Of a DNA stretch of 64,000 nucleotides, positions 11,428 through 34,943 are shown piece after piece; the stretch's first letter is position 1, and each line of letters starts with the position of its first letter. Source of the DNA: a virus. The stretch is taken from positions 32,001-96,000 of the IMG/VR virus record IMGVR_UViG_3300036939_000082; one strand, 5' to 3'. The notes below the pieces were generated by a model. The model saw only the letters and a program-made list of their open reading frames with translations, was not told where the DNA came from and did not search any database. The translations under genes were made by a program, and so were the position numbers.

Positions 11428-11928
11428 ATGACTAGCTACATTGAACTTTTGATTGAAAATCTACAGTTACGCACGAAAAAAGAACGCCTGACTATAGAAA
11501 AGAAAAGTCTGAAGACGGAAATTGAACGCTTGACTAAACAATTAGAACACATGAAGGCATTAAGAATTGAAATGCACAACGCATTTAAGCACGATCGCCC
11601 GATAGGTACAATGAAAGAAGTAGGCAGGGAGTCGCTAGAGTTTAACTGTGATGGCACTGGTGGAACGATTCACATAGTGAAATACGTTGATGATAGTGGT
11701 ACTTCTTTTATATACACAGAAGGGTTTGCCGAAAACGGTGATATAGCTCCTAAATTGTTCTGGCTAGGATATGCTGTTTTTTTCTTAGCTGAATGGCTAG
11801 GGCAACTAGGTTTTGTTTCTGTACCCGATCGGTTTGTAAAACTTTGTGAGGAAAATCCTAAATTTTTGGGTTTTGTTGATCGGGAGTTTCAACGGATCCG
11901 CGACACAAACCGAGGTGATAATACATGA
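11428..11928 (+). CDS. Hypothetical protein with N-terminal coiled coil
   Basis: 166-aa ORF in the operon. Confidence 0.7.
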   Translation: MTSYIELLIENLQLRTKKERLTIEKKSLKTEIERLTKQLEHMKALRIEMHNAFKHDRPIGTMKEVGRESLEFNCDGTGGTIHIVKYVDDSGTSFIYTEGFAENGDIAPKLFWLGYAVFFLAEWLGQLGFVSVPDRFVKLCEENPKFLGFVDREFQRIRDTNRGDNT

Positions 11929-12269
11929 AAAACCGCAAATTAGTCGAAGTTAAAGTTTTTGAACCTGCAAAACACTCCTCACTAGGAGAATGTAAAATAG
12001 ACGGACAGTTCTCTCATCTCGATCGCCACCGATTCACTAATTGCTGGCAAAAACCTTTACCCAGCGGAGCTATTAGGTGCTGGCAACTAGGTTGCCAAGG
12101 TCGCTGGGATTTTGTAGACGGCGTTTGCCTTGATTTTCTTGGTCGGTATCGCGCTGAGATTGTTGGGGAAATTTCGCGCGATCGCCAAGGAGAGAAAGAT
12201 AGATTTGTTTCCGCTGATGCAGCACAATTGAAATTTTTTACACAAAACGAAAACTTTTCCAAGGATTAA
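11925..12269 (+). CDS. Hypothetical protein
   Basis: ATGA overlap with the upstream gene. Confidence 0.65.
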   Translation: MKNRKLVEVKVFEPAKHSSLGECKIDGQFSHLDRHRFTNCWQKPLPSGAIRCWQLGCQGRWDFVDGVCLDFLGRYRAEIVGEISRDRQGEKDRFVSADAAQLKFFTQNENFSKD

Positions 12270-12270
12270 A

Positions 12271-13299
12271 ATGAACACTCAACTGACACTTGCACTCGAC
12301 ATATTCCCCGACGCCAGTCTAACTTTAGAGCAAAAAATCGAATGGAGTTTAAAAGTTTTTGACAGTTTAGACGAAGAGAAAGAGTACCGACTTGCTTTTA
12401 GTGGAGGTAAAGACAGCCACGTATTACTCGGAATATACTTAAAGTGGCGCGAGTCTCGTCAAAAAAACTTGAAGTTAAATGTGGTCTTTTCTGATACGTT
12501 GCTAGAAAGTCAGCAGCTTTACAGTCTGATCGAATTGACAGAGAAGACTTGCAAGGCAAAAGAAATCAACTTTATTCGAGTTAAACCCTTGTTAGAACAC
12601 AATTTTTGGGTAATTCTGTTTGGACTGGGTTATCCTGTACCGAATCACAGGGTTAGATGGTGTACAAGCCGTTTAAAAATCGATCCAATGGAAAAGACCC
12701 CGGGCATCGGCATTACGGGTTCTCATTTTGGAGAGAGTACAAAAAGAGACAACAGACTAAAAAAATGCGGTTCCAACGAATGCGGTATCAATGAATTATC
12801 TAATACTGTTGAACCTTTAGCAATCTGGCGAAACTGCGATATCTGGGATTGGATAATACTGTACTCTGACAGTATTATCTATAACGGAGTAAGCAGTCAA
12901 TTATTGTCCACATACAACATAGCAGAAGATAAAAATGGGAGCTTGAGAATGGGTTGTTTTATGTGTCCCGTGATAGCTCAGAGTACAACAGTTAAATTGG
13001 TAAACGATGGCATCGTGTCTCCAATTACCCTCAAAATTCGGGAGATTCTTGAAATTTTGCGAAAAAAACCCAGGATTTTATCGCAAAGGACTAAAAAGAA
13101 TGGGGCAATTTTAGTGGACGCTAGAATCGAAGTTTGGGAAAAAATGAAACCTTTTTTTCCTGTACTTTTAGAAAACAACTGGATTCAGCCCGAGGTAATA
13201 CACTTGGTTGAAGAAATGTTGTCTAAGAGAACTTACCCCCCAACCTACAAACAAGATTGGATAAAAGAACAGGAACAACTTCTCAAAAGTTTAGACTAG
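12271..13299 (+). CDS. Short DndC-like / PAPS-reductase-family protein
   Basis: AFSGGKDS PP-loop, SDTLLE, FWV.L.G.GYP.P...RWCTSRLKIDP, LRMGCFMCPV. Confidence 0.85.
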   Translation: MNTQLTLALDIFPDASLTLEQKIEWSLKVFDSLDEEKEYRLAFSGGKDSHVLLGIYLKWRESRQKNLKLNVVFSDTLLESQQLYSLIELTEKTCKAKEINFIRVKPLLEHNFWVILFGLGYPVPNHRVRWCTSRLKIDPMEKTPGIGITGSHFGESTKRDNRLKKCGSNECGINELSNTVEPLAIWRNCDIWDWIILYSDSIIYNGVSSQLLSTYNIAEDKNGSLRMGCFMCPVIAQSTTVKLVNDGIVSPITLKIREILEILRKKPRILSQRTKKNGAILVDARIEVWEKMKPFFPVLLENNWIQPEVIHLVEEMLSKRTYPPTYKQDWIKEQEQLLKSLD

Positions 13300-13389: not shown

Positions 13390-13875
13390 CTATTGCATGA
13401 TACAATTTGGCAGCGCTTTCTGAAGCGAGCTTTTTTCTTCTCGACTAATTTCATTTCCGCCAATATAAAGCTCGGCTAAGTTGTGCAGCGAGCTTAACGG
13501 CTCAAGCGTTGTAATTTTATTGCCTGACAAGTTTAACCTTGTCAGATTGGTTAATTTCGCTAGGGGTGCAACATCGACAATTTGGTTGTCGTCTAGATAG
13601 AGCCACGTCAGATCCAGCAGCGATCCCAGTGAGCTGAGGTTGACTATTTTATTTTGTCTCAAGTCTAGGTGTATCAACTTGAACAATGGTTCTAGCGGAC
13701 TGATGTCGCTGATTTTGTTTCCCTTCAACCAGAGATACATCAGGTGCGTCAATTCACTGAAAGGCTGCAAGTCCTCAATTCCTTTGTCCTCGACAGCTAC
13801 ATCCGTCAGCCTAGTGATTTCGCTGATTTTAGGTAGCTGTTCTGCCGTGTACTGGTCGGGGTATATGTACGTCAT
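13390..13875 (-). CDS. Leucine-rich-repeat protein 2 (6 repeats)
   Basis: 22-aa LRRs; C-cap SLQKALPNC. Confidence 0.9.
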   Translation of the reverse strand: MTYIYPDQYTAEQLPKISEITRLTDVAVEDKGIEDLQPFSELTHLMYLWLKGNKISDISPLEPLFKLIHLDLRQNKIVNLSSLGSLLDLTWLYLDDNQIVDVAPLAKLTNLTRLNLSGNKITTLEPLSSLHNLAELYIGGNEISREEKSSLQKALPNCIMQ

Positions 13876-15652: not shown

Positions 15653-16234
15653 TCAATTTTTCAAGAACTGTTCAGCCGCCAGCCAAGCTTTTTCGGGAGT
15701 TGGATGCGGTGCGCTCAATGTCCGATCGCCCGCGCCCACACCAAAATCGTAAGGAAAAGATCCGGGTGCTCGAACGCGGAAGCTCCAACCTTCCGATCGC
15801 CCACGTTCCACTAATTCGACTCGATACTGAACCCGCTGCACCGTGTATATCTGGCGATTGCCGTTCCTAACGTCTAATCCGCCGTAGCAATCGGGACGGT
15901 AGGTTTCCACGATTTTTGCAACCAAGCTTCTGTGGCAGCGCACGGGCGATCTCTCCCAACAGCACAAGGTTACATCGGTTTCTGGATCGAGATTGTCCAG
16001 CCAGTGCTTGATAGCATTCCAGCGCGATCGGCAAGTTTTTCGATAAGCTTCCACATAGTCTTCCCAATCTGCTTTAGACTTCGGGCTGTTTTTGTACTTT
16101 TGTACCGCTCTCCAATTAGGGACAAACAGTTCGATTGTCTTGACATCGGAGTGGGACTTAGGTGGATACTTGGCGATTGACTGGAGTTCGCCAAACTGAA
16201 ATTCCCATTTAGAGAATGCTGTGAAGTAAATCAT
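15653..16234 (-). CDS. DUF488-family protein
   Basis: DVTLCCWERSPVRCHRSLVA motif. Confidence 0.75.
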   Translation of the reverse strand: MIYFTAFSKWEFQFGELQSIAKYPPKSHSDVKTIELFVPNWRAVQKYKNSPKSKADWEDYVEAYRKTCRSRWNAIKHWLDNLDPETDVTLCCWERSPVRCHRSLVAKIVETYRPDCYGGLDVRNGNRQIYTVQRVQYRVELVERGRSEGWSFRVRAPGSFPYDFGVGAGDRTLSAPHPTPEKAWLAAEQFLKN

Positions 16235-16236
16235 TT

Positions 16237-17976
16237 TTAACTGTTTTTAACGCCTAGTTTTGCCGAAATTTCTCGTTGTAGAACTCTTCTAAATGCTATT
16301 TCAATATTGCAAATTCGAGTTTTGACCATATTTAATAGAGGAAGCGAGGTGATTCTAATCTCTGCGGTGTTATTGACGATCGCCACTAGGCGACCGTGCT
16401 GTCTCAATAATTCCTGCGTTCCGTAGGGTCTAACCTCGTTTAAAGTTTTATTCCACAAACGATGTAACTCGATCGCGCTTAACGGCTTGTTTTCTTCGTT
16501 AGCTTCTTGATACTTGAGTCGAGCCCACTTGGTTGAATGACCCAGTTTTTTTGCTAAATATCGCCAACTACCCAGAGAAATTTCCGATCGCCACTCTTTG
16601 CTTGTTTCGGTAAATTGATGGTATACCCAAGCAGTTGGGTACTTAAGGCGTTGGCAGTTAGCCAATAAATCATCAATTATTGCAGTGTGTGTTGGATTGG
16701 GAGTTAAATCGATCTCTTTGTCTTTGTCGTTTGCATTCAATTCTGGTTTTGGTTTTTCTCCTCCGCCACTACCCACTTTGAACGTGTTTTCAGTCAGACA
16801 GTTTGGACAAAGACATTTTAAATCGGGAATCTCGTGCGACAGCGGCTTGAAGATGTGAGAACACGATTTGCAGACAACGTGCAGGAACCGTTTAGCTTCT
16901 ATTCCAAGGCTTTGAGGTTCCAGCGACCATTCTCTTTCTTCATCTGGCAGTCCTAACGATTCCCAACTTTTGCCGTGATCGATGATTGTGGCAAAAGTCT
17001 TGCCGTCTGCCAATCTCAGTCCGCGACCGACCATCTGGAGCCACAGGCTCAAGCTTCTTGTGGGCCGCACGATCTGAACAACTTCAATACTGGGAAGATC
17101 GAATCCTTCTGAGATAATTCCGCAGTTGCAAAGGACGATCGTCTCTCCTGAGTTAAACCTGTACAGAACATCCCGCCGATCGCCCGTTTCCGTTTCTCCG
17201 TCTAAATGCTCCGCTGGAATCCCAGCAGCTTGAAAAGCTCCTGCATATTCGCGACTTCTAGCAACGTCTACAGCAAAAACCACAGTCCGGTTCCCGCCTG
17301 CCCGTCGCTTCCACTCGGCTACCACATCGTTTGGCTCTATTTGTTCGGCAACCGCTTCGCTCAATCTTTCACTATTGAAGTCTCCACCGCTGCTTTTGAT
17401 TTTGTTGGTATTGATTGTCTTGCCAGCTTGGTACAGTTTGTACTGAGACAGATATCCGCGATCGATCAGTTCCTTGGTGGACGGCCCGCAGATTAGTGAT
17501 TGAAATAGGTATTTAAACCCTTGACCGTCATTTCTACACGGAGTTGCAGTGAATCCCAAGATTTTGGCATTTGGATAGTTTTGCAAAACTTTTGTGTAGC
17601 TCCGACTGCAAGCGTGGTGTGCTTCATCAATAATTACTAGGTCTGCTGGCGGTAAATATTGGCGGCGGGCGAGCGACTGGATTGATGCAATTTGTAAATT
17701 GTAGAGAGGGTTTGGCTTGTAGCCGTTTTTGATGATTCCTGCGGAAATTCCAGAAATAGCCTCCATTTTTTCTTGGGCTTGCAAAAGCAATTCTTCTCTG
17801 TGAGCAATAACTAAGACTCGCAGTCCACTATTCAAAAACGGTGCGCTAATCGTTCCGAACGTAGGTGTTTTTCCACCGCCAGTAGCGAGTTGCACCATAA
17901 TGGAGCGAACGTCGTTTTGCCACAACTCCAATACCTTGAATTCTATTTCTTCTTGGTAATCTCTTAACTTGTACAT
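16237..17976 (-). CDS. SF2 DEAD/DEAH-box helicase with Zn-finger insert and extra C-terminal domain
   Basis: ATGGGKT, DEAHH, TATP, EGFDLP, QMVGRGLR; CKSC...CPNC. Confidence 0.93.
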   Translation of the reverse strand: MYKLRDYQEEIEFKVLELWQNDVRSIMVQLATGGGKTPTFGTISAPFLNSGLRVLVIAHREELLLQAQEKMEAISGISAGIIKNGYKPNPLYNLQIASIQSLARRQYLPPADLVIIDEAHHACSRSYTKVLQNYPNAKILGFTATPCRNDGQGFKYLFQSLICGPSTKELIDRGYLSQYKLYQAGKTINTNKIKSSGGDFNSERLSEAVAEQIEPNDVVAEWKRRAGGNRTVVFAVDVARSREYAGAFQAAGIPAEHLDGETETGDRRDVLYRFNSGETIVLCNCGIISEGFDLPSIEVVQIVRPTRSLSLWLQMVGRGLRLADGKTFATIIDHGKSWESLGLPDEEREWSLEPQSLGIEAKRFLHVVCKSCSHIFKPLSHEIPDLKCLCPNCLTENTFKVGSGGGEKPKPELNANDKDKEIDLTPNPTHTAIIDDLLANCQRLKYPTAWVYHQFTETSKEWRSEISLGSWRYLAKKLGHSTKWARLKYQEANEENKPLSAIELHRLWNKTLNEVRPYGTQELLRQHGRLVAIVNNTAEIRITSLPLLNMVKTRICNIEIAFRRVLQREISAKLGVKNS

Positions 17977-18160
17977 TGTTCTTGTTTTGTGTTGGTTGAG
18001 GACTTAATACTAGAGATAAGATCGACTTTCCTCAAGGATTGCCAATATCTTGTTTAGCTTGTCAATAGAGCATCCAAGTCCAAAACGCATAGTGATTGAT
18101 TTTGGTTTTCACTGCTTTTGTTCACAAAAATTGATTTGGGCTTTATGGTGGGGAAAATTG

Positions 18161-19726
18161 TTAGTGTTTTTGACCAAATTTTAAGTCTGCCCACGACAAT
18201 TGCTTGTCTATATTCTCTTTTGGCTTGCTAATTAACTCCTTAATTTTTTCCATGCCATCAACTCCATTGTTAACCGCTGCACTCAACTCGTGTTTTTCCT
18301 GTGCTCGCGATATCGCATCCTCCCGAGATTCTCCATTCCGCTCAAATGCTTGCTCCAAAGGCTTATAAACGTTTTTGCGATGGGGTGATAAACGTTGCTT
18401 ATCCGTCAGACTTAGCAAGCTTGCCATCAGTTCTAGGTGATTTTTGTCGTCACCACAAACCTCTTTAAGCGCTTCCCACTCTTCATTGCCAAGGATAGTG
18501 CGCTCGTCAATATGTCGAACATCTTTAAAAACTTCACCCGTCGCTTCTTCGTAAATTCGTGGCAAACTGTCGTCAAATTCATGCTTCTGTTCTAGCCAAA
18601 TCCTGCGGATTTCACTGAGTTCTTCTGGGGTAATTAAGGTGATGTCGCGCATTTCTAGGGGTGCAGTTTTGCGGATGTGAGTCTGTGTTTCTAGTACCCG
18701 TCTGAGCCAGTGTTCGCGCCAATGTCGTAGATATGGTCCTGGTATAAGTTCGACAGACGTGGTGCCGTCGTCCATCGTCTTGTCGAATAGATCAACCCTG
18801 CCGTTCATCCGTCGATAATCGCGCCGATCACGATCGTCCGGGACTTGTAGTTCGTTCCGAATATCAAGCAACGGTTGCATCCATTCTTTTTGACTGTCGT
18901 TAATAATCATTGCTTCCATCGATTTGTCTTTGCTAACCATCGTGCAAGTCCAACAACCAAACCGAGAACTACCACAGCTAGGGGTAGAAGTATCAACTAC
19001 TAGCGGGCATTCATTATCTGCCGTTGCGCCACGATACATGACAAACAGATCTTTGTTGCTCCCGCCCCACGGATTGTCAAATTGCATCAAATACATCCAT
19101 ACCTCGTCCGTGCGCCAATCTTCAATCGGAAGGTAGATAAAAGATCCAGGATTTGCTGGGCTTGAGTTTAAATGTTTTGCTACCCTGCTTTCCCTATGCT
19201 TCGCCATATTGGTGGCACGGGTAGAACTTTCAGCACTACGAGTGCCAAGTGCCAAAACAACTTGACCGCAGGTGGCGATCGACTGACGTATAAAGACCGT
19301 GGCGGGATTGATTTTTAGACGATCTGTACACCATCGAAAATTACGCCGGGGTGCTGCATACCCTTTCCCAATCAAACAAACCCAAAAAGTGTCCTGAATA
19401 GCTGGTGTAGTGACTTGAGTTACGATCGGCATTTCTTGTTCCAATGCTGCTCGCTCCATCTGCTTCAACGAACTGCGAACTTGGGCGGACACAATTGGAT
19501 TCTCCACCAGCGTGTCATTTGTGAGTACGTAGATTTTGTGGATGCGTTGATCGATCGGTAGTTGGCGGACGGCGTTCCAAATTAACTGCAAAACCGTGGT
19601 ACTATCTTTGCCTCCACTCCAACCGATGACAATTGGATTGCCCTCTAGATATATTTGCTGAATTTCTTTGGTCAGCAGTTCGATTTCGGTCATTAGACCG
19701 GGAACGGTACGGAGAGTATCTGTCAT
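18161..19726 (-). CDS. dndC: DNA phosphorothioation sulfurtransferase DndC (full length, host-like)
   Basis: GWSGGKDST, DTLVENP, FWVCLIGKGYAAP..NFRWCTDRLKINP, ADNECPLVVDTSTPSCG.SRFGCWTCTMV.KDKSM, PGPY, EELSEIRRIW. Confidence 0.92.
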   Translation of the reverse strand: MTDTLRTVPGLMTEIELLTKEIQQIYLEGNPIVIGWSGGKDSTTVLQLIWNAVRQLPIDQRIHKIYVLTNDTLVENPIVSAQVRSSLKQMERAALEQEMPIVTQVTTPAIQDTFWVCLIGKGYAAPRRNFRWCTDRLKINPATVFIRQSIATCGQVVLALGTRSAESSTRATNMAKHRESRVAKHLNSSPANPGSFIYLPIEDWRTDEVWMYLMQFDNPWGGSNKDLFVMYRGATADNECPLVVDTSTPSCGSSRFGCWTCTMVSKDKSMEAMIINDSQKEWMQPLLDIRNELQVPDDRDRRDYRRMNGRVDLFDKTMDDGTTSVELIPGPYLRHWREHWLRRVLETQTHIRKTAPLEMRDITLITPEELSEIRRIWLEQKHEFDDSLPRIYEEATGEVFKDVRHIDERTILGNEEWEALKEVCGDDKNHLELMASLLSLTDKQRLSPHRKNVYKPLEQAFERNGESREDAISRAQEKHELSAAVNNGVDGMEKIKELISKPKENIDKQLSWADLKFGQKH

Positions 19727-20175
19727 TATTTTTTCCGGTTTGCGAGATTTTTGGTAACTGGGAGCAAAGCAAAGATTTGCTCTGAGCTTAATTTCAAAAG
19801 CTGCTGCGGAGGATTGATGCCCGCATCTTTTAATGCAACAAGGTCGATCGCGCTTTCAAATCTTTTGGGGCGATCGACCCACACCGCTACCCCTGCATCC
19901 TTACCCTGATAATAAGCGTCGAAATCTTCCGCCGACACTTGTGCATACTGTTCAGTTTCTCGTCGGAGTCGATCTATCCAGATTTGAGATCGATCGCGCA
20001 CCCTAACTTCGCCAATAACTTCGCCTACCGGGAGCGTTGCGTAGATTAGGAGGCGATCGCCCGCTGATAGCGAACTTCCAAAATTACCCTTGCGGAGTTC
20101 TACGGTTTTCGGGCGATCGTCCGAAAAAAACAAACTAGCCCAAGTCGGCTTGACTGACATCAGGTAAGTTTCCAT
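19726..20175 (-). CDS. ASCH / PUA-like domain protein
   Basis: LMSVKP.WA..F....KTVELRK...LIYAT.PV..VIG...F..YY.GK..G...PPQ; stop overlaps the dndC start. Confidence 0.85.
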   Translation of the reverse strand: METYLMSVKPTWASLFFSDDRPKTVELRKGNFGSSLSAGDRLLIYATLPVGEVIGEVRVRDRSQIWIDRLRRETEQYAQVSAEDFDAYYQGKDAGVAVWVDRPKRFESAIDLVALKDAGINPPQQLLKLSSEQIFALLPVTKNLANRKK

Positions 20176-20384
20176 TATTCTTCCTTCCCAAAGTACATTT
20201 TTATGTGTTCTTCTATGCTGAAAACCCTTCCGTATTCCTCAAAATAGGCGTTGTCGAACAAAACCCATGCTTCGAGCCTGCCGCACATAGGGATGTCTCC
20301 CTCAGCGCACAACTTTTTGAACTTTCTCTTGTCTGAAGGATGCAAGAAAACGCTTACTTTGTCTTTATCTGGGGGTTCTGGCAT
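20175..20384 (-). CDS. Ribbon-helix-helix-like regulator
   Basis: KVSVFLHPSDKRKFKKLCAEGDIPM. Confidence 0.6.
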   Translation of the reverse strand: MPEPPDKDKVSVFLHPSDKRKFKKLCAEGDIPMCGRLEAWVLFDNAYFEEYGRVFSIEEHIKMYFGKEE

Positions 20385-20495: not shown

Positions 20496-20641
20496 CCACT
20501 ATTGATTTATTGTAAAAGCAGTGAACTGATTATGGCTATCGATTGGAATTAAATTCGTCAAACAGCAAAAGCTGTAGAAAGTGTTTAACCGCGATGCAAT
20601 CAACTTACTTGAATACAAAAATACGGAGGGAGTGCGAGAAA

Positions 20642-21670
20642 ATGACTAATATTGAATGGTGCGACATCACTGCAAATCCAATTCATTTAATCCGCGAGGA
20701 CGGATCGAACGGCGGTCATTTTTGCCAGAAGTTGTCCCCTGGATGTTTAAATTGTTATGCAGAGGAAATAAATCAAAGCAATTATTTTGGTTTTGCTTCA
20801 CACTTGCCGTATTCTGGAAAACCACCAGAAAATTTGATTTTTGATGATGAAGTGATGCGAAAGCTAGTCAATATGCGATCGTCCAAAACAATCTTCCTCT
20901 GTTCGATGACCGATCTATTTGGCAACTGGATTCCATCTGAATGGATCTATAAAGCATTTGCCTATATGGCGATCGCCTCGCAGCACAAATTTTTAGTCTT
21001 GACCAAGCGACCGGAAAGGATGAAAGACATTTTGCGCTGTGGCGGAAAGCAACGCATCAGACGAGATGCTGTCGATGTAGGGCGATCGATGGGCTTAGAA
21101 CCAAGACGCTACGAAAGTTTCGAGACTTGTGATTTTGATTGGCCTTTGGCGAATGTGGGGCTGGGAACGTCAATCGAAAATCAGCAAGTTGCGGGCGATC
21201 GGGCAACAGATCTACTTGACTGCCCAGCCGCAATGCGATTTTTATCTTGCGAACCACTCCTAGAGGAATTGAATTTAGTTTCGTACAAGCGTAACGGTGG
21301 TAGCTACAATTACCTCCTAAATACATGGGAACCCCACAAGTCTGGGGCTGGTGGCGCTGTCGCTGGAGGTCGGATATCGCCTTTTTATAATGACGGAATT
21401 AATTGGATTATCTGCGGTGGAGAGTCTGGCTCCGGTGTTCGCCCCTGCCATATCGATTGGATTCGATCGCTCGTTCAGCAATGCCAGCAAACCAAAACAG
21501 CGGTGTTTGTCAAGCAATGGGGAAGTCACGCGATCAACTCCACCCCATACATTGATGGAGTTGTTCAAAGTCACTTCCGGGTAAAGCTCAAGAGTCGGAA
21601 AGGTGGGGACATTTCTGAATTCCCTGCCGACTTACAGATTCGACAATTTCCACATTTTTTAGGGAAGTGA
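20642..21670 (+). CDS. Phage Gp37/Gp68 (DUF5131) radical-SAM-like protein
   Basis: TNIEWCD...NPI, CQKLSPGCLNCYA, IFLCSMTDLF, LTKRPERM, FLSCEPLL, WIICGGESG, FVKQWG. Confidence 0.92.
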   Translation: MTNIEWCDITANPIHLIREDGSNGGHFCQKLSPGCLNCYAEEINQSNYFGFASHLPYSGKPPENLIFDDEVMRKLVNMRSSKTIFLCSMTDLFGNWIPSEWIYKAFAYMAIASQHKFLVLTKRPERMKDILRCGGKQRIRRDAVDVGRSMGLEPRRYESFETCDFDWPLANVGLGTSIENQQVAGDRATDLLDCPAAMRFLSCEPLLEELNLVSYKRNGGSYNYLLNTWEPHKSGAGGAVAGGRISPFYNDGINWIICGGESGSGVRPCHIDWIRSLVQQCQQTKTAVFVKQWGSHAINSTPYIDGVVQSHFRVKLKSRKGGDISEFPADLQIRQFPHFLGK

Positions 21671-22071
21671 ATGCTATGTCTCAGATCAACATTGAAAGAC
21701 ACCAATCATTTAGTCATTCGGGTTGTAACTTTACAACTTACGACGAGTCTCAATTTTTGATGGTAGCCGAGTATTGGGAGGCGAGTCAGGAAAGATCGAA
21801 CAAATTACCTTTGCAGGGATTTGGGAGAGCCACGTACAGAAATTGTGTAGAAGCTTGTATTGAGGCAATCGAGCAAGCTGTTAACGCAGAATTTAGTCTT
21901 AACCATGCAATCGGGAAAGAAACTTTACTAATCGTTCCAGTAGTTGTAATGCGTTTTACCTTGCACCCTAGGAAAAGCACGGCAGGACTTCCTAGAGCGG
22001 AGAAAGATGAGCTACACCAGCGACAAACCGCCCACAGAACTAATAACAATACAAATGGGGAAGAAAAATGA
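21667..22071 (+). CDS. Hypothetical protein
   Basis: Overlapping operon ORF. Confidence 0.6.
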   Translation: MNAMSQINIERHQSFSHSGCNFTTYDESQFLMVAEYWEASQERSNKLPLQGFGRATYRNCVEACIEAIEQAVNAEFSLNHAIGKETLLIVPVVVMRFTLHPRKSTAGLPRAEKDELHQRQTAHRTNNNTNGEEK

Positions 22072-22463
22072 GTTGTAATTGTGAAATGCCAGCGCTGTAT
22101 AGGTCAAAGCTGGTAAAGACAAGAAAAAAACATAAATGCGTAGAATGTAACGAGCATATTGCGATTGGGGAAAAGGCAGAAAAAGTAGACGCTATCTACG
22201 ATGGTAGTTTTCAGACTTTTTACACTTGCTTGCAATGTCAAGAGATAATCGAATTCATTCGTCAAGAACATGAAGACGATTTACTCAAAGACTTGAAAGA
22301 GGCACTGTGTTGTCATGGCGAACTGTACGAATTGTTGTCTGAAAGTGTTTTTGACAGTCAGGAAGAGGAAGAAGGTTATGCCTGTCATTATCGACCAAAC
22401 GTTTCTTGGTTGAATCCGTTTGTTCAAGGAAAACTATCTCTAAATATTGAGGCAAAGTTATGA
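22068..22463 (+). CDS. Cys-rich (Zn-finger) phage protein
   Basis: RKKHKCVEC...YTCLQC...CCHGEL. Confidence 0.7.
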   Translation: MSCNCEMPALYRSKLVKTRKKHKCVECNEHIAIGEKAEKVDAIYDGSFQTFYTCLQCQEIIEFIRQEHEDDLLKDLKEALCCHGELYELLSESVFDSQEEEEGYACHYRPNVSWLNPFVQGKLSLNIEAKL

Positions 22464-25022: not shown

Positions 25023-26276
25023 ATGTTGTGTGCAACTGAATTTAGTGGGGCTGGGACAGTCGATCATGCTTTCAAGCGACGCGGTGGAAAAATAGTTTTT
25101 GCAGTTGAATATTGGAAAAAAATGGCAGATGAGATGTACATCCCAAATCATGGAGCTGAACATCTTTTAATCTCAAAAGTCCAAGATATGTGTACAGAAA
25201 GTTTTAAAATTGGTAAAGGCAATTTAGATATATTTTGGGCATCACCGGAATGCGACGAATTTTCAAAAGGCAAAAAAGGTGGTGCAGAAGGGCTAGAGCA
25301 GACGAGTTCTGCTTTTGCGATCGCCGACCACATCAAAATATTGATGTCGAAGTGTGTGGTTATCGAAAACGTCGAGGGCTACGTTGGCTCTAGGAGTTAC
25401 AACCATTTGAAACTCACATTGAGCAAGTTGTTTTATAGCACACAGACTTTCCTGTTAAATGCCGCTGACTACGGAACGCCGCAAACCAGGAAGCGGATGT
25501 ACCTGATTGCAACTCGCAAAGACATTGGCTCAGTACCGGCGATCGCCCCAACACACGCCAAGCATCCGATGCCTTCACTGTTTGGCGATCCTATCAAACC
25601 TTGGAAAGGTTGGCTTGAGGCGGTAGCAGACTTGTTGCCCGATCGCCCTTACTATACCTGGAATTCGGAAAAATCTGATTGGGTGTTCCATCAAACCAAT
25701 GGCGACCGCATGACCAACGGTTTAGCTAAGTGGCAGATGAATCGACTGAAAGAGGCGATCGCCTTTGGCAAACTCAAGGAATTCAGTTCCTTAATAGTAG
25801 ACGGTAAAAATGCTGGTCGCGAAATCACCTTTTGCAATGAGCAAAAGCCTGCCTACACGATCGTCGGCAGTTGCAATTCAGAAAGTCACTGGCCGACAGC
25901 CATACTTGTTCCGGGGGCAAACGCTGGCAACAATTCTCCAACTGTTCGGTTAGGTGACAAGCCAACAGTAACGATAACTCCGGGCGTATACCCTACGGGA
26001 GTGCTGTCGGGCGATCGGATAAAACTGAATCCGCTAAAAACCCCTGAATCTCAACTTCAAATCATTCTCGAAAACTGCATTTTTGTGAAATTTTCCACAA
26101 GAATGCTGGCGAGGTTGCAGGGGCTGAGTGACGACTACAAATTGCCTAATAACAATGCACTTGCTAGCGAAGGAATCGGCAACGGCGTTGCCGTAGAAGT
26201 TGCTGAAGCTATTTATACGGCACTTGAAAAACAAATTAATCGTAGTAGTAACGGATTCCAACGTCATGCTTGTTGA
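25023..26276 (+). CDS. DNA cytosine-C5 methyltransferase 2 (paralogue of MTase 1)
   Basis: FSGAG, SPECDEFS, IENVEG, PQTRKR, ARLQGL, IGNGVAVE. Confidence 0.88.
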   Translation: MLCATEFSGAGTVDHAFKRRGGKIVFAVEYWKKMADEMYIPNHGAEHLLISKVQDMCTESFKIGKGNLDIFWASPECDEFSKGKKGGAEGLEQTSSAFAIADHIKILMSKCVVIENVEGYVGSRSYNHLKLTLSKLFYSTQTFLLNAADYGTPQTRKRMYLIATRKDIGSVPAIAPTHAKHPMPSLFGDPIKPWKGWLEAVADLLPDRPYYTWNSEKSDWVFHQTNGDRMTNGLAKWQMNRLKEAIAFGKLKEFSSLIVDGKNAGREITFCNEQKPAYTIVGSCNSESHWPTAILVPGANAGNNSPTVRLGDKPTVTITPGVYPTGVLSGDRIKLNPLKTPESQLQIILENCIFVKFSTRMLARLQGLSDDYKLPNNNALASEGIGNGVAVEVAEAIYTALEKQINRSSNGFQRHAC

Positions 26277-33442: not shown

Positions 33443-33641
33443 AATCTGCTGTTAGCTTATTGAAACCGTCGCGATCAAATTAATTGCGACGGTTTTTATT
33501 TAAAATGATATTTTGTTTACCGCTTTTATATGTTAAAAATACATTTTCTTTATGAATACGTGATACAATATAATAAGTTACACAATACGACACAAAACAA
33601 TGAAAACAACAGCAAGGTGATCGTATGATATAACACGAATT

Positions 33642-33860
33642 TTGAGAGAGCTAAATAAACTTTCTCGACACGAAAAGCTTCTCATAATAGGAGCAGTTTA
33701 CTGCTCGTCACGCGGCCCCGAAACAGTTACAAGTCTTGTTAATCGTTCTGTTGAGAAGCCATCTCAGGATTTCACAGATGCAGTACAGGAAATTTCCTGT
33801 TTGGAGAAAACAGAATTAACGGATTTGGCAAAAACCTTAAGTTTTATCTATTTCCATTAA
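33642..33860 (+). CDS. Small hypothetical protein
   Basis: TTG-start 72-aa ORF before the terminator at 33865-33904. Confidence 0.5.
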   Translation: MRELNKLSRHEKLLIIGAVYCSSRGPETVTSLVNRSVEKPSQDFTDAVQEISCLEKTELTDLAKTLSFIYFH

Positions 33861-33957
33861 AGTGAAAACCTCGCGATCAAATCGGTTTGATCGCGAGGTT
33901 TTTTGTTGTCAAAATTCACTTTATCACTTATAAGGGTCGATACTTACTTAAAATCAA

Positions 33958-34079
33958 AAGGCGCGCTGGGAGTCGAACCCGAGGCAACGAACTGCAAACG
34001 GTTTGGGAAATCCACCTACTTGCAACGGTAGTCTGAACTACATAGTAGCTAATCTAGATCCGGTCTAGAATCACGCCTT
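33958..34079 (-). ncRNA. tRNA-like structured RNA (~120 nt)
   Basis: Terminal stem AAGGCGTG/CGCGCCTT, T-loop GGTTCGACTCCC at the 3' end, several internal hairpins, TATAAT at 34104-34099. Confidence 0.55.
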
Positions 34080-34109
34080 CGCCTGTTACGGCTAAGCTAT
34101 TATATCTTA

Positions 34110-34943
34110 TTACCAATCCGTCGGCAAGCCAGTCGATCGCCCGCCAACGGCAACTGCGATTCGTCCCCACCCGCTGTCACCCCAAATAGCTTCTAAAGAC
34201 GCTTGGCTGTAGACATCGTATTTCCCGCTGTCACCGCCGATCACCGCGTAGTAATCGGCGGTGCCGGCCCTAGAACCGTAGGGGTCGTGAACGTAGAATA
34301 CTCGTTTGGCGCGATCGTACCCAACCAGCAAAATCATGTGACCGCTGATTTTGTAAGTGACTCCCAGCACCACGGGATAGCCGTTTTCAAGAGAGTGAAT
34401 CGCTTCTGGAACGTCTAGGGTGTAACTGAAATAGCTGTCAATCCCTATATCTCGTAGAACTTTTGTCTGGGCTCCGTGGTCGATAGTGTCACCGTATTTG
34501 TTTAAAATTTTACCGTAGTAGTCTTCCGGCTCCTGTAAACCGTCATTCTCAGCTCTTTGGGAAAGAGTTTTTTGACCGAATTTCTCTAACAGGTATTCGG
34601 CAAACATCGCGCAGGCTGTCAGGTTGCACTGGCGCGTTCCGGGTCCGAAATAGCCGCTGTAGTTATCGACTTGGCTAAAATATTTGACATCCAATCGAGT
34701 GGTAGCTTCTGGTAGCTGCCAGTGCGGAGAGTAAATGTAGCCCTTTTTAATTAAAGTGCCGTCGATCGCCTCAATACCGTCAGCAAGCACTATTTGATAA
34801 TGCTGATCTCGAACGGGAGTAAGATCCGAGTAATTGAATAAAGTTTGACCGAGGGCGATCGAAGCTTTGTCTGAAGGTAGCAGGCTCGCTGCATCTTGCA
34901 TTTTAGCTTTTAAGACGGTAGCTTTAAGCGCTTGAATTGTCAT
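34110..34943 (-). CDS. C39-like peptidase (putative cell-wall hydrolase / lysin)
   Basis: YFSQVDN...QCNLTACAM...GHMILLVGYD...YVHDPYG Cys-His-Asp triad. Confidence 0.85.
   Translation of the reverse strand: MTIQALKATVLKAKMQDAASLLPSDKASIALGQTLFNYSDLTPVRDQHYQIVLADGIEAIDGTLIKKGYIYSPHWQLPEATTRLDVKYFSQVDNYSGYFGPGTRQCNLTACAMFAEYLLEKFGQKTLSQRAENDGLQEPEDYYGKILNKYGDTIDHGAQTKVLRDIGIDSYFSYTLDVPEAIHSLENGYPVVLGVTYKISGHMILLVGYDRAKRVFYVHDPYGSRAGTADYYAVIGGDSGKYDVYSQASLEAIWGDSGWGRIAVAVGGRSTGLPTDW

Follow-up and report, generated by a model that had tools for sequence, protein, structure and literature searches.

A 64,000-nucleotide stretch of viral DNA (hereafter the window; bases 32001-96000 of the 188,942-base IMG/VR virus record IMGVR_UViG_3300036939_000082) carries a full-length gene for DndC, the sulfurtransferase of DNA phosphorothioation, coupled to a gene for an ASCH-domain protein and headed by a gene for a 69-residue protein. 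Comparison with related sequences shows a cyanophage clade of genuine DndC enzymes that are coupled or fused to ASCH and are encoded without DndB, DndD or DndE, the blank for DndE being a weak one. In these comparisons the conserved core of the locus is 69-residue protein-ASCH-DndC, and not the string of five genes in which it is found. As an explanation we tentatively favor a phage-borne module that marks DNA with sulfur, probably as phosphorothioate, independently of DndD and DndE; we put its chances somewhat short of even.

Five co-oriented genes with a coupled ASCH-DndC pair

An earlier sequence-only reading of this DNA described five co-oriented genes, and all five are present as minus-strand open reading frames, listed here in window coordinates.

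20175..20384, minus strand: 69-residue protein, a ribbon-helix-helix candidate, whose gene heads the module; open reading frame conserved upstream of ASCH/DndC
19726..20175, minus strand: ASCH-domain (PUA-like) nucleic-acid-binding protein, 149 residues; profile and fold match
18161..19726, minus strand: DndC, PP-loop ATP pyrophosphatase/Fe-S sulfurtransferase of DNA phosphorothioation, 521 residues; TIGR03183
16237..17976, minus strand: superfamily 2 (SF2) helicase with a RadD-like core and a DnaA_N-like C-terminal domain, 579 residues; ResIII, Helicase_C and PF23007
15653..16234, minus strand: DUF488-N3a protein, 193 residues; PF22751 and PF04343

The first two junctions, between the 69-residue and ASCH genes and between the ASCH and DndC genes, are both 1-nucleotide overlaps, while 184 nucleotides lie between DndC and the helicase and 2 nucleotides between the helicase and DUF488. 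A promoter-like site is found ahead of the 69-residue gene on the minus strand (20442-20414), and no terminator-like site was found in the 184-nucleotide gap between DndC and the helicase.

The phage enzyme is a genuine DndC of a separate clade

The phage protein scores 630.8 bits against the DndC equivalog model TIGR03183 (cut-off 290.4 bits; 631.2 bits in the search of the genome). The description of this gene as a full-length, host-like dndC, translationally coupled to the ASCH gene, is borne out. PADLOC gave 598 bits for DndC, against 54 bits for BrxP of BREX type 4 and 32 bits for SspD of the Ssp system, and the latter two identities were rejected. The SGGKDS PP-loop (S37-S42) and Cys133, Cys240, Cys251, Cys258 and Cys261 do not vary among 27 phage and cyanobacterial DndCs that were aligned, and are 100% conserved in both the phage and the cyanobacterial clade; another cysteine, which 98% of the cyanobacterial clade retain, is replaced by alanine in most of the phage proteins. 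The two clades have 208 conserved positions in common and 5 clade-fixed differences, so that phage and host DndC are evidently held to the same constraint. Sequence searches of the PDB with DndC, with its profile and with the corresponding enzyme of a sister phage (see below) returned no relevant structure.

The closest DndCs (71-81% identity) are metagenomic, followed at 59-64% by named cyanobacterial DndCs, the nearest being those of Microcoleus, Coleofasciculus and Lyngbya. In a tree of 120 DndCs and six distant viral outgroups (quick search, LG+G4, no bootstrap), all eight DndCs of known phage context fall into one 18-member clade, with a Shimodaira-Hasegawa-like approximate likelihood ratio test (SH-aLRT) value of 100 and a stem of 0.43. 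This clade, whose members are 62-81% identical to the window's DndC, lies beside and not within a 101-member clade that includes all 24 named cyanobacterial sequences. By the alignment and the tree, the phage enzyme is an old DndC that evolves on a line of its own under full constraint, and not a recent capture.

Querying IMG/VR with the single DndC protein gave no relative, and an alignment query was used instead. This returned 34 records with DndC relatives, 29 of which, complete genomes included, are without DndD, and 5 of which also encode DndD; the window's type of ASCH occurs in none of the 34. One of the complete phages without DndD is L018 (IMGVR_UViG_3300027985_001729, 75 kb, with terminal repeats), in which a DndC relative of 49% identity lies two genes downstream of DpdA, a 7-deazaguanine DNA transglycosylase (L018 3925-5034 and 5887-7449).

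The usual partners of DndC are missing from the phage record

The sequence-only reading noted that the window lacks dndB, dndD, dndE and dndA/iscS, and the blank extends to the rest of the 188,942-base record. Neither DndD (TIGR03185) nor DndA/IscS (class-V aminotransferase, PF00266) had a match in the whole record, using models that were positive in 14 of 14 control genomes, and DndB had none in a search that was likewise positive in control genomes. DndE (TIGR03184) also gave no match in the record; this blank is weak because the model was silent in every control genome too. In the cyanobacterial locus L013, the gap between dndC and dndD holds a repeat-like open reading frame only, and no DndE was found in it. 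A host cysteine desulfurase could serve the phage in place of DndA/IscS.

ASCH and the 69-residue protein, not the helicase, travel with DndC

Nine contigs around close DndC relatives were compared by BLAST; several of them are short, and "absent" here often means not within a few kilobases. In at least five other cyanophage contigs, ASCH is either a direct neighbor of DndC or part of the same protein. ASCH lies directly before DndC in L004/L005/L063 and in L062, and the two are fused into one protein of 668-691 residues in L003, L006-8 and L009/10 (fusion proteins P0003, P0013 and P0014). The contigs with adjacent or fused ASCH-DndC belong to a different phage lineage, with terminases 91% alike among themselves, and tblastn found no homologue of this terminase or of the lineage's other neighbor genes in the present genome. 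Two small proteins of 174-193 and 141-146 residues, 77-86% conserved, follow DndC in that lineage (L003 10133-11092; L004 9647-10611; L006 2679-3708; L009 7409-7849) and are candidates for further DndC partners. Neither has a Pfam family or a homologue in this genome, and an Atlas search with the 141-residue protein returned nothing usable.

Homologues of the 69-residue protein (52-72% identity) are encoded directly upstream of ASCH or DndC in L011, L053 and two short contigs. L011 is a relative of the present phage, with methylases 78-84% and a DUF5131 protein 79% identical; its 69-residue gene stands directly before DndC, which is followed by PadR, and ASCH, helicase and DUF488 are absent.

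The sister phage IMGVR_UViG_3300035684_000001 (locus L053; 188.5 kb), whose helicase is 91% identical, shows the order DUF5131, then 69-residue gene (71%), ASCH (73%), a gene here called X, helicase, DUF488 remnant and PadR. X encodes a 402-residue PP-loop protein that is 24% identical to DndC, with SGGKDS and CxxC motifs and without the C-terminal third; its TIGR03183 score of 117 bits falls short of the cut-off, and no other DndC-type gene was found in the sister phage. X occupies the slot of DndC, and the pair of 69-residue protein and ASCH therefore appears to work with interchangeable PP-loop enzymes, one of them non-canonical. In the same phage the helicase gene (L053 5001-6740) has an in-frame TAA at codon 160, where the window has Ser160, and the DUF488 gene (L053 6743-7050) is frameshifted and has lost residues ~24-145, while the 69-residue, ASCH and PP-loop genes are intact. 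The stop codon and the DUF488 loss could reflect either genuine decay or faulty assembly. The 69-residue and ASCH genes thus stayed in position through a change of enzyme, and the helicase and DUF488 genes seem dispensable. Mainly because of this sister-phage comparison, we define the module as 69-residue protein, ASCH and a PP-loop sulfurtransferase, and leave out the helicase and DUF488.

The identities given earlier to the two downstream genes stand. The helicase matches PF04851 ResIII (92.3 bits), PF00271 Helicase_C (50.8 bits) and the DnaA_N-like PF23007 (38.6 bits), as well as the DNA helicase family phrog_16 (316 bits); RadD itself was rejected, at 131.7 bits on its model against a cut-off of 720. 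The DUF488 protein, the product of the single DUF488 gene in the phage genome, scores 37.9 bits on PF22751 (cut-off 27) and 27.3 bits on PF04343 (cut-off 22.2), with a Pfam match that spans residues 37-111 only and covers only the C-terminal half of the profile. It also matches the PADLOC candidate-defence models PDC-M19A and PDC-M45C.

It is very unlikely that all five genes form one system with the SF2 helicase in the place of DndD as the necessary nucleoside triphosphatase (NTPase) and with DUF488 as a further component. Such a system would follow the pairing of a 3'-phosphoadenosine 5'-phosphosulfate (PAPS)-reductase protein with a P-loop NTPase in Dnd, Ssp and BREX type 4 (PMC12914056), and it is consistent with the helicase lying after DndC on the same strand across a gap free of terminator-like sites, with the same order in the sister phage and with a helicase homologue (58% identity) no more than 6 kb from ASCH-DndC in L004. 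However, this homologue sits 6 kb upstream beside a primase, like a replication gene, and no helicase homologue was found near DndC in L011, L003, L006-8, L009/10, L012 or L062. A third large phage has a 60% identical helicase, yet its sole match to the DndC model, at 18.6 bits far below the cut-off, is ~13 kb away. The sister phage, with its helicase interrupted and its DUF488 core deleted beside three intact module genes, argues in the same direction, and no DUF488 counterpart was found beside DndC in any relative compared. The gene-neighborhood survey of phage dndC thus upholds the ASCH-DndC linkage and does not uphold that of helicase and DUF488: the five genes are not one conserved system, and the helicase, elsewhere or absent in relatives and carrying a stop codon in the sister phage, is not a conserved partner of DndC. 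It is probably a neighboring replication or repair gene, and DUF488 appears, on the gene orders compared, to be an accessory neighbor that is not conserved with DndC.

The ASCH protein retains residues that contact the backbone in a solved ASCH protein

A Pfam search with the 149-residue protein gave no match, the ASCH model included. A profile of 17 sequences matches the Zymomonas mobilis ASCH (ZmASCH) structures 5GUQ/5GUS over residues 6-143 (E 3e-11). The AlphaFold model has a predicted local distance difference test (pLDDT) value of 82.6, and Foldseek places it at template modeling (TM) scores of 0.74-0.80 to 5GUQ/5GUS/5Y6B/5Y6C (E 8e-12, TM 0.76/0.79), with EVE, TRIP4-ASCH, THYN1 and YTH domains next in the list. 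ZmASCH binds and cleaves single-stranded RNA and also binds single-stranded DNA, and its Tyr47, Thr49 and Gln127 touch the phosphate backbone (PMC5615036). In the HMMER alignment these three residues correspond to Y45, T47 and Q124, which are invariant in the phage ASCH family. Lys53 and Ser128 of ZmASCH are not retained, being Gly51 and Gln125 in the phage protein, and a ZmASCH-type RNase activity is doubtful because of these replacements. Among the candidate-defence models of PADLOC, the ASCH protein matches the component PDC-M11B (75.7 bits).

A metagenome scan with the ASCH alignment found two loci only. Distant members of the ASCH subfamily adjoin a P-loop protein of 527-586 residues with an N-terminal membrane segment. 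This family, with Walker A GSGKT/S, is encoded on cyanophage-like contigs (L054 185-1855, L058 3222-4805, L057 7565-9325), just upstream of the distant ASCH gene in two of the three and ~2 kb downstream in L057.

For the 69-residue protein, profile searches gave no family match, a PDB sequence search nothing below E 0.7 and an Atlas search unnamed clusters only. In its low-confidence model (pLDDT 57), a hydrophobic KVSVFLH segment is followed by three helices, at 19-29, 34-51 and 57-65. These predicted elements plausibly fit strand-helix-helix, and the assignment to ribbon-helix-helix is a guess only; the protein has room for one such repeat at most, while DndE carries two (PMC10853773).

Another explanation is that ASCH-DndC thiolates RNA, e.g. 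tRNA, or that PP-loop adenylation installs another base modification, as in ThiI/TtcA/TilS/QueC-type enzymes. This is unlikely. In its favor, the closest ASCH protein of solved structure has single-stranded RNA as a ligand and a cleavage substrate (PMC5615036), RNA-modifying enzymes are often guided by PUA-like domains, the distant DndC-like enzymes of the window and the sister phage weakly match TilS and TtcA models, and the DndC relative of L018 lies close to DpdA. The window protein, however, is a full DndC equivalog and not a mere PAPS-reductase relative, its neighbors include DNA methylases (listed below), and no DpdA was found in this genome. Single-stranded DNA is also bound by ZmASCH (PMC5615036), and the fold matches include TRIP4, THYN1 and VcaM4I, whose ASCH or EVE domains bind DNA.

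The phage, its likely host and the surrounding genes

The window contains a portal gene and a tail-sheath-like gene, in keeping with a phage, and a 6339-codon open frame lies in the record outside the window. Megablast of the region against GenBank phages gave no match. Over the whole record, there are 127 copies of the cyanobacterial HIP1 octamer GCGATCGC, where 1.6 would be expected; GGCC is depleted (71 against ~419 expected), GATC is commoner than expected (1202 against 712), and GAAC and GTTC occur as expected. Among sequencing runs, the one DNA run listed as containing the region is a biocrust metagenome, which may be the source sample, and no RNA run was listed. Because of the HIP1 excess and this metagenome, the host is very likely a filamentous cyanobacterium. 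Phosphorothioate-based restriction is common in filamentous cyanobacteria, as Dnd and Ssp are in those of biocrusts and mats, and with the nearest named DndCs being cyanobacterial and the sample a biocrust, the likely hosts of this phage probably carry Dnd.

Four further genes of the window are of interest for DNA modification or synteny.

20543..21670, plus strand: gene for a DUF5131 protein of the Gp37/Gp68 family, oriented divergently to the module; PF07505, 201.9 bits
22460..23674, plus strand: C5 cytosine DNA methyltransferase 1; PF00145, 122 bits; 78% identical to the L011 methylase
25023..26273, plus strand: C5 cytosine DNA methyltransferase 2; phrog_116, 159.5 bits; 84% identical to the L011 methylase
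12271..13299, plus strand: second, distant PP-loop/PAPS-reductase (DndC-like) gene, 342 residues; PF01507, 37.9 bits

The module appears to sit in an anti-restriction island with the two orphan C5-methylases. The DUF5131 gene is syntenic in L011 (79% identity) and in the sister phage (61%), and it matches the PADLOC candidate-defence models PDC-M41B and PDC-M30B; it is followed by two small overlapping genes (21667-22463, plus strand), one of them weakly zf_UBZ in Pfam. The second PP-loop protein is 27% identical to DndC and scores 76.9 bits on TIGR03183, below the cut-off. Its gene is abutted by, and translationally coupled to, a gene for a 114-residue protein without known family (11925-12269, plus strand), which the sister phage retains without the second PP-loop enzyme. 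Small leucine-rich-repeat proteins are scattered in the phage, at 13390-13875 (minus strand) of the window and at 33504-34112, 64146-64862 and 182675-183130 of the record. One such gene lies between PadR and the second PP-loop gene, and homologues of these proteins occur in L011 and the sister phage.

A phage-borne sulfur-marking module as the preferred explanation

DndC is an ATP-pyrophosphatase and Fe-S protein that passes sulfur from a cysteine desulfurase to DNA; a scanning and holding role on the DNA is ascribed to DndD and DndE (PMC10853773, PMC12707154). We propose that, during infection, sulfur or persulfide would be drawn from the host's cysteine desulfurase, and that ASCH, which is fused to DndC in related cyanophages, would most likely give the nucleic-acid grip supplied by DndD and DndE in bacteria. 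The 69-residue protein would be a site reader, as a one-repeat analogue of DndE, or the regulator of the module. With DNA rather than RNA as the substrate, and independently of host DndD and DndE, the module would place a sulfur mark on phage DNA, most likely a backbone phosphorothioate. Progeny DNA would in this way be shielded from phosphorothioate-based restriction, a protective logic that the module would share with the adjoining orphan C5-methylases. A bolder form of this proposal is doubtful, namely a self-sufficient viral phosphorothioate writer in which DndC would be joined by a small protein that reads DNA and by ASCH as a clamp on the backbone, and which would need only the housekeeping cysteine desulfurase of the host.

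In favor of the sulfur-marking module are the intact DndC with all its invariant residues and a constraint like that of the host enzyme, the linkage of ASCH and DndC in a second phage lineage, the exchange of enzymes in the sister phage, the 29 records without DndD, the retained residues of ASCH that align with backbone contacts of ZmASCH, the neighboring DUF5131 and C5-methylase genes together with the depletion of GGCC, and the Dnd systems of the likely hosts. There is also a single-gene precedent, in that tdpC alone suffices for phosphorothioation (PMC12914056).

Several points weigh against the sulfur-marking module. In the Dnd system DndA, DndC, DndD and DndE are all essential (PMC8569181), and the pairing of a PAPS-reductase protein with a P-loop NTPase runs through Dnd, Ssp and BREX type 4 (PMC12914056), whereas no P-loop NTPase partner was found conserved beside the phage DndC in the contigs compared. 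L012 and the complete 91.7-kb phage L014 have, like L011, a DndC without ASCH beside it, so that DndC apparently dispenses with ASCH, or ASCH is encoded elsewhere. ASCH is in turn not specific to DndC, because relatives of it are fused to or adjoin other genes: its close relatives P0137 and P0138 are fused to C-terminal regions without family, and the distant members of the subfamily (40-49% identity) are not beside PP-loop genes. The whole-length likeness to host DndC would also fit continued use of host DndD and DndE, and, by analogy with ZmASCH acting on single-stranded RNA, an RNA substrate may be compatible with the same genes.

That the phage DndC plugs into host DndD-DndE (and IscS) is fairly unlikely. 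It would supply DndC to hosts that have a DndDE core without one, or raise or retarget the modification of phage DNA, with ASCH only recruiting that DNA. The 59-64% identity to cyanobacterial DndC and the 208 common conserved positions against 5 fixed differences over the whole length are as expected for such a role. DndD-DndE cores without DndC occur in ~30% of core-bearing taxa (PMC10853773), and orphan dndD/dndE are enriched in Nostocales (PMC8569181). The classical system, moreover, requires DndA, C, D and E together (PMC8569181). The phage clade is nevertheless old and separate (stem 0.43, SH-aLRT 100), the sub-cut-off 402-residue enzyme in the slot of the sister phage is hard to square with a specific fit to DndDE, and a second copy of DndC is no gain in a host that already has one.

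The conservation of the active site bears on one more alternative, a decoy in which phage DndC and ASCH titrate host DndD/E or IscS, or block Dnd, non-enzymatically. Phage-encoded Dnd inhibitors exist (JSS1_004, PMC12345140), and dndC and dndD seem to be toxic to E. coli when overexpressed together (PMC12707154). A decoy, however, needs neither the PP-loop nor the five cysteines nor the 208 positions that are kept in the 18 phage-clade sequences, and the slot is taken in the sister phage by another PP-loop enzyme that looks active. We regard this explanation as highly improbable.

Significance and comparison with known systems

The papers cited here describe phosphorothioation as belonging to defence systems of cells (Dnd, Ssp, Tdp and BREX type 4). 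If the phage module is indeed a self-sufficient writer, it would be the first case of a DNA backbone modification encoded by a virus, and a natural minimal DndC system showing which roles of DndD and DndE a PUA-like domain can take over. How DndC locates and activates the backbone is still debated, and the ASCH-DndC fusion (~670-690 residues), as one protein to express and assay, offers a compact system for the chemistry of DndC. For cyanophages that infect biocrust and mat cyanobacteria, the module could represent a likely new means of countering restriction, and surveys in which the potential for phosphorothioation is judged from dndC and dndD occurring together would miss such elements. In the searched literature, which leaves most subscription journals outside, we found no description of a phage ASCH-DndC pairing; DUF488 with DndC, "DndC-like" and ASCH with PAPS reductase in phages were also searched there, and the arrangement was not described.

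Phage genes annotated as "PAPS reductase" (PHROG 424, 12882 and 2302) are solitary PP-loop enzymes, and the second PP-loop gene of the window and X of the sister phage are of this kind. They are distant from DndC (about 24-28% identity) and have no assigned function, whereas the window's DndC is a true DndC. The swap of DndC for such a distant enzyme in the sister phage ties many of these unexplained genes to a similar job.

Among phosphorothioation systems, the phage module resembles DndABCDE in its DndC, which is 59-64% identical to cyanobacterial DndC, has the same PP-loop and cysteines and scores at twice the equivalog cut-off. It differs in that DndD (an ABC ATPase), DndE (a reader with two ribbon-helix-helix repeats), DndB and DndA are absent from 189 kb, with the reservation on DndE given above; in that its DndC is coupled or fused to ASCH, which is not known in Dnd clusters (the cyanobacterial L013 has none); and in that its genes reside in a virus and form a separate DndC clade. 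The nearest precedent for a writer free of DndD and DndE is TdpC of TdpABC, a single-gene modification (An et al. 2025, as cited in PMC12914056). Likened here by description only, Tdp differs as a chromosomal defence system of thermophiles with TdpAB as restriction partners, and no ASCH partner is reported for it in the text consulted. BrxP of BREX type 4 and SspD are similar as sulfur inserters with a PAPS-reductase domain that work without DndD and DndE (PMC12914056); BrxP requires BrxC and SspD requires SspB/C, whereas no such partner is linked to the phage DndC. Finally, ZmASCH (PDB 5GUQ) and the ASCH, EVE and PUA-like readers have the same fold as the phage ASCH, with three of the backbone-contacting residues kept, yet the phage protein differs from ZmASCH in having no equivalents of Lys53 and Ser128, and we propose that it acts as the accessory of a modifying enzyme.

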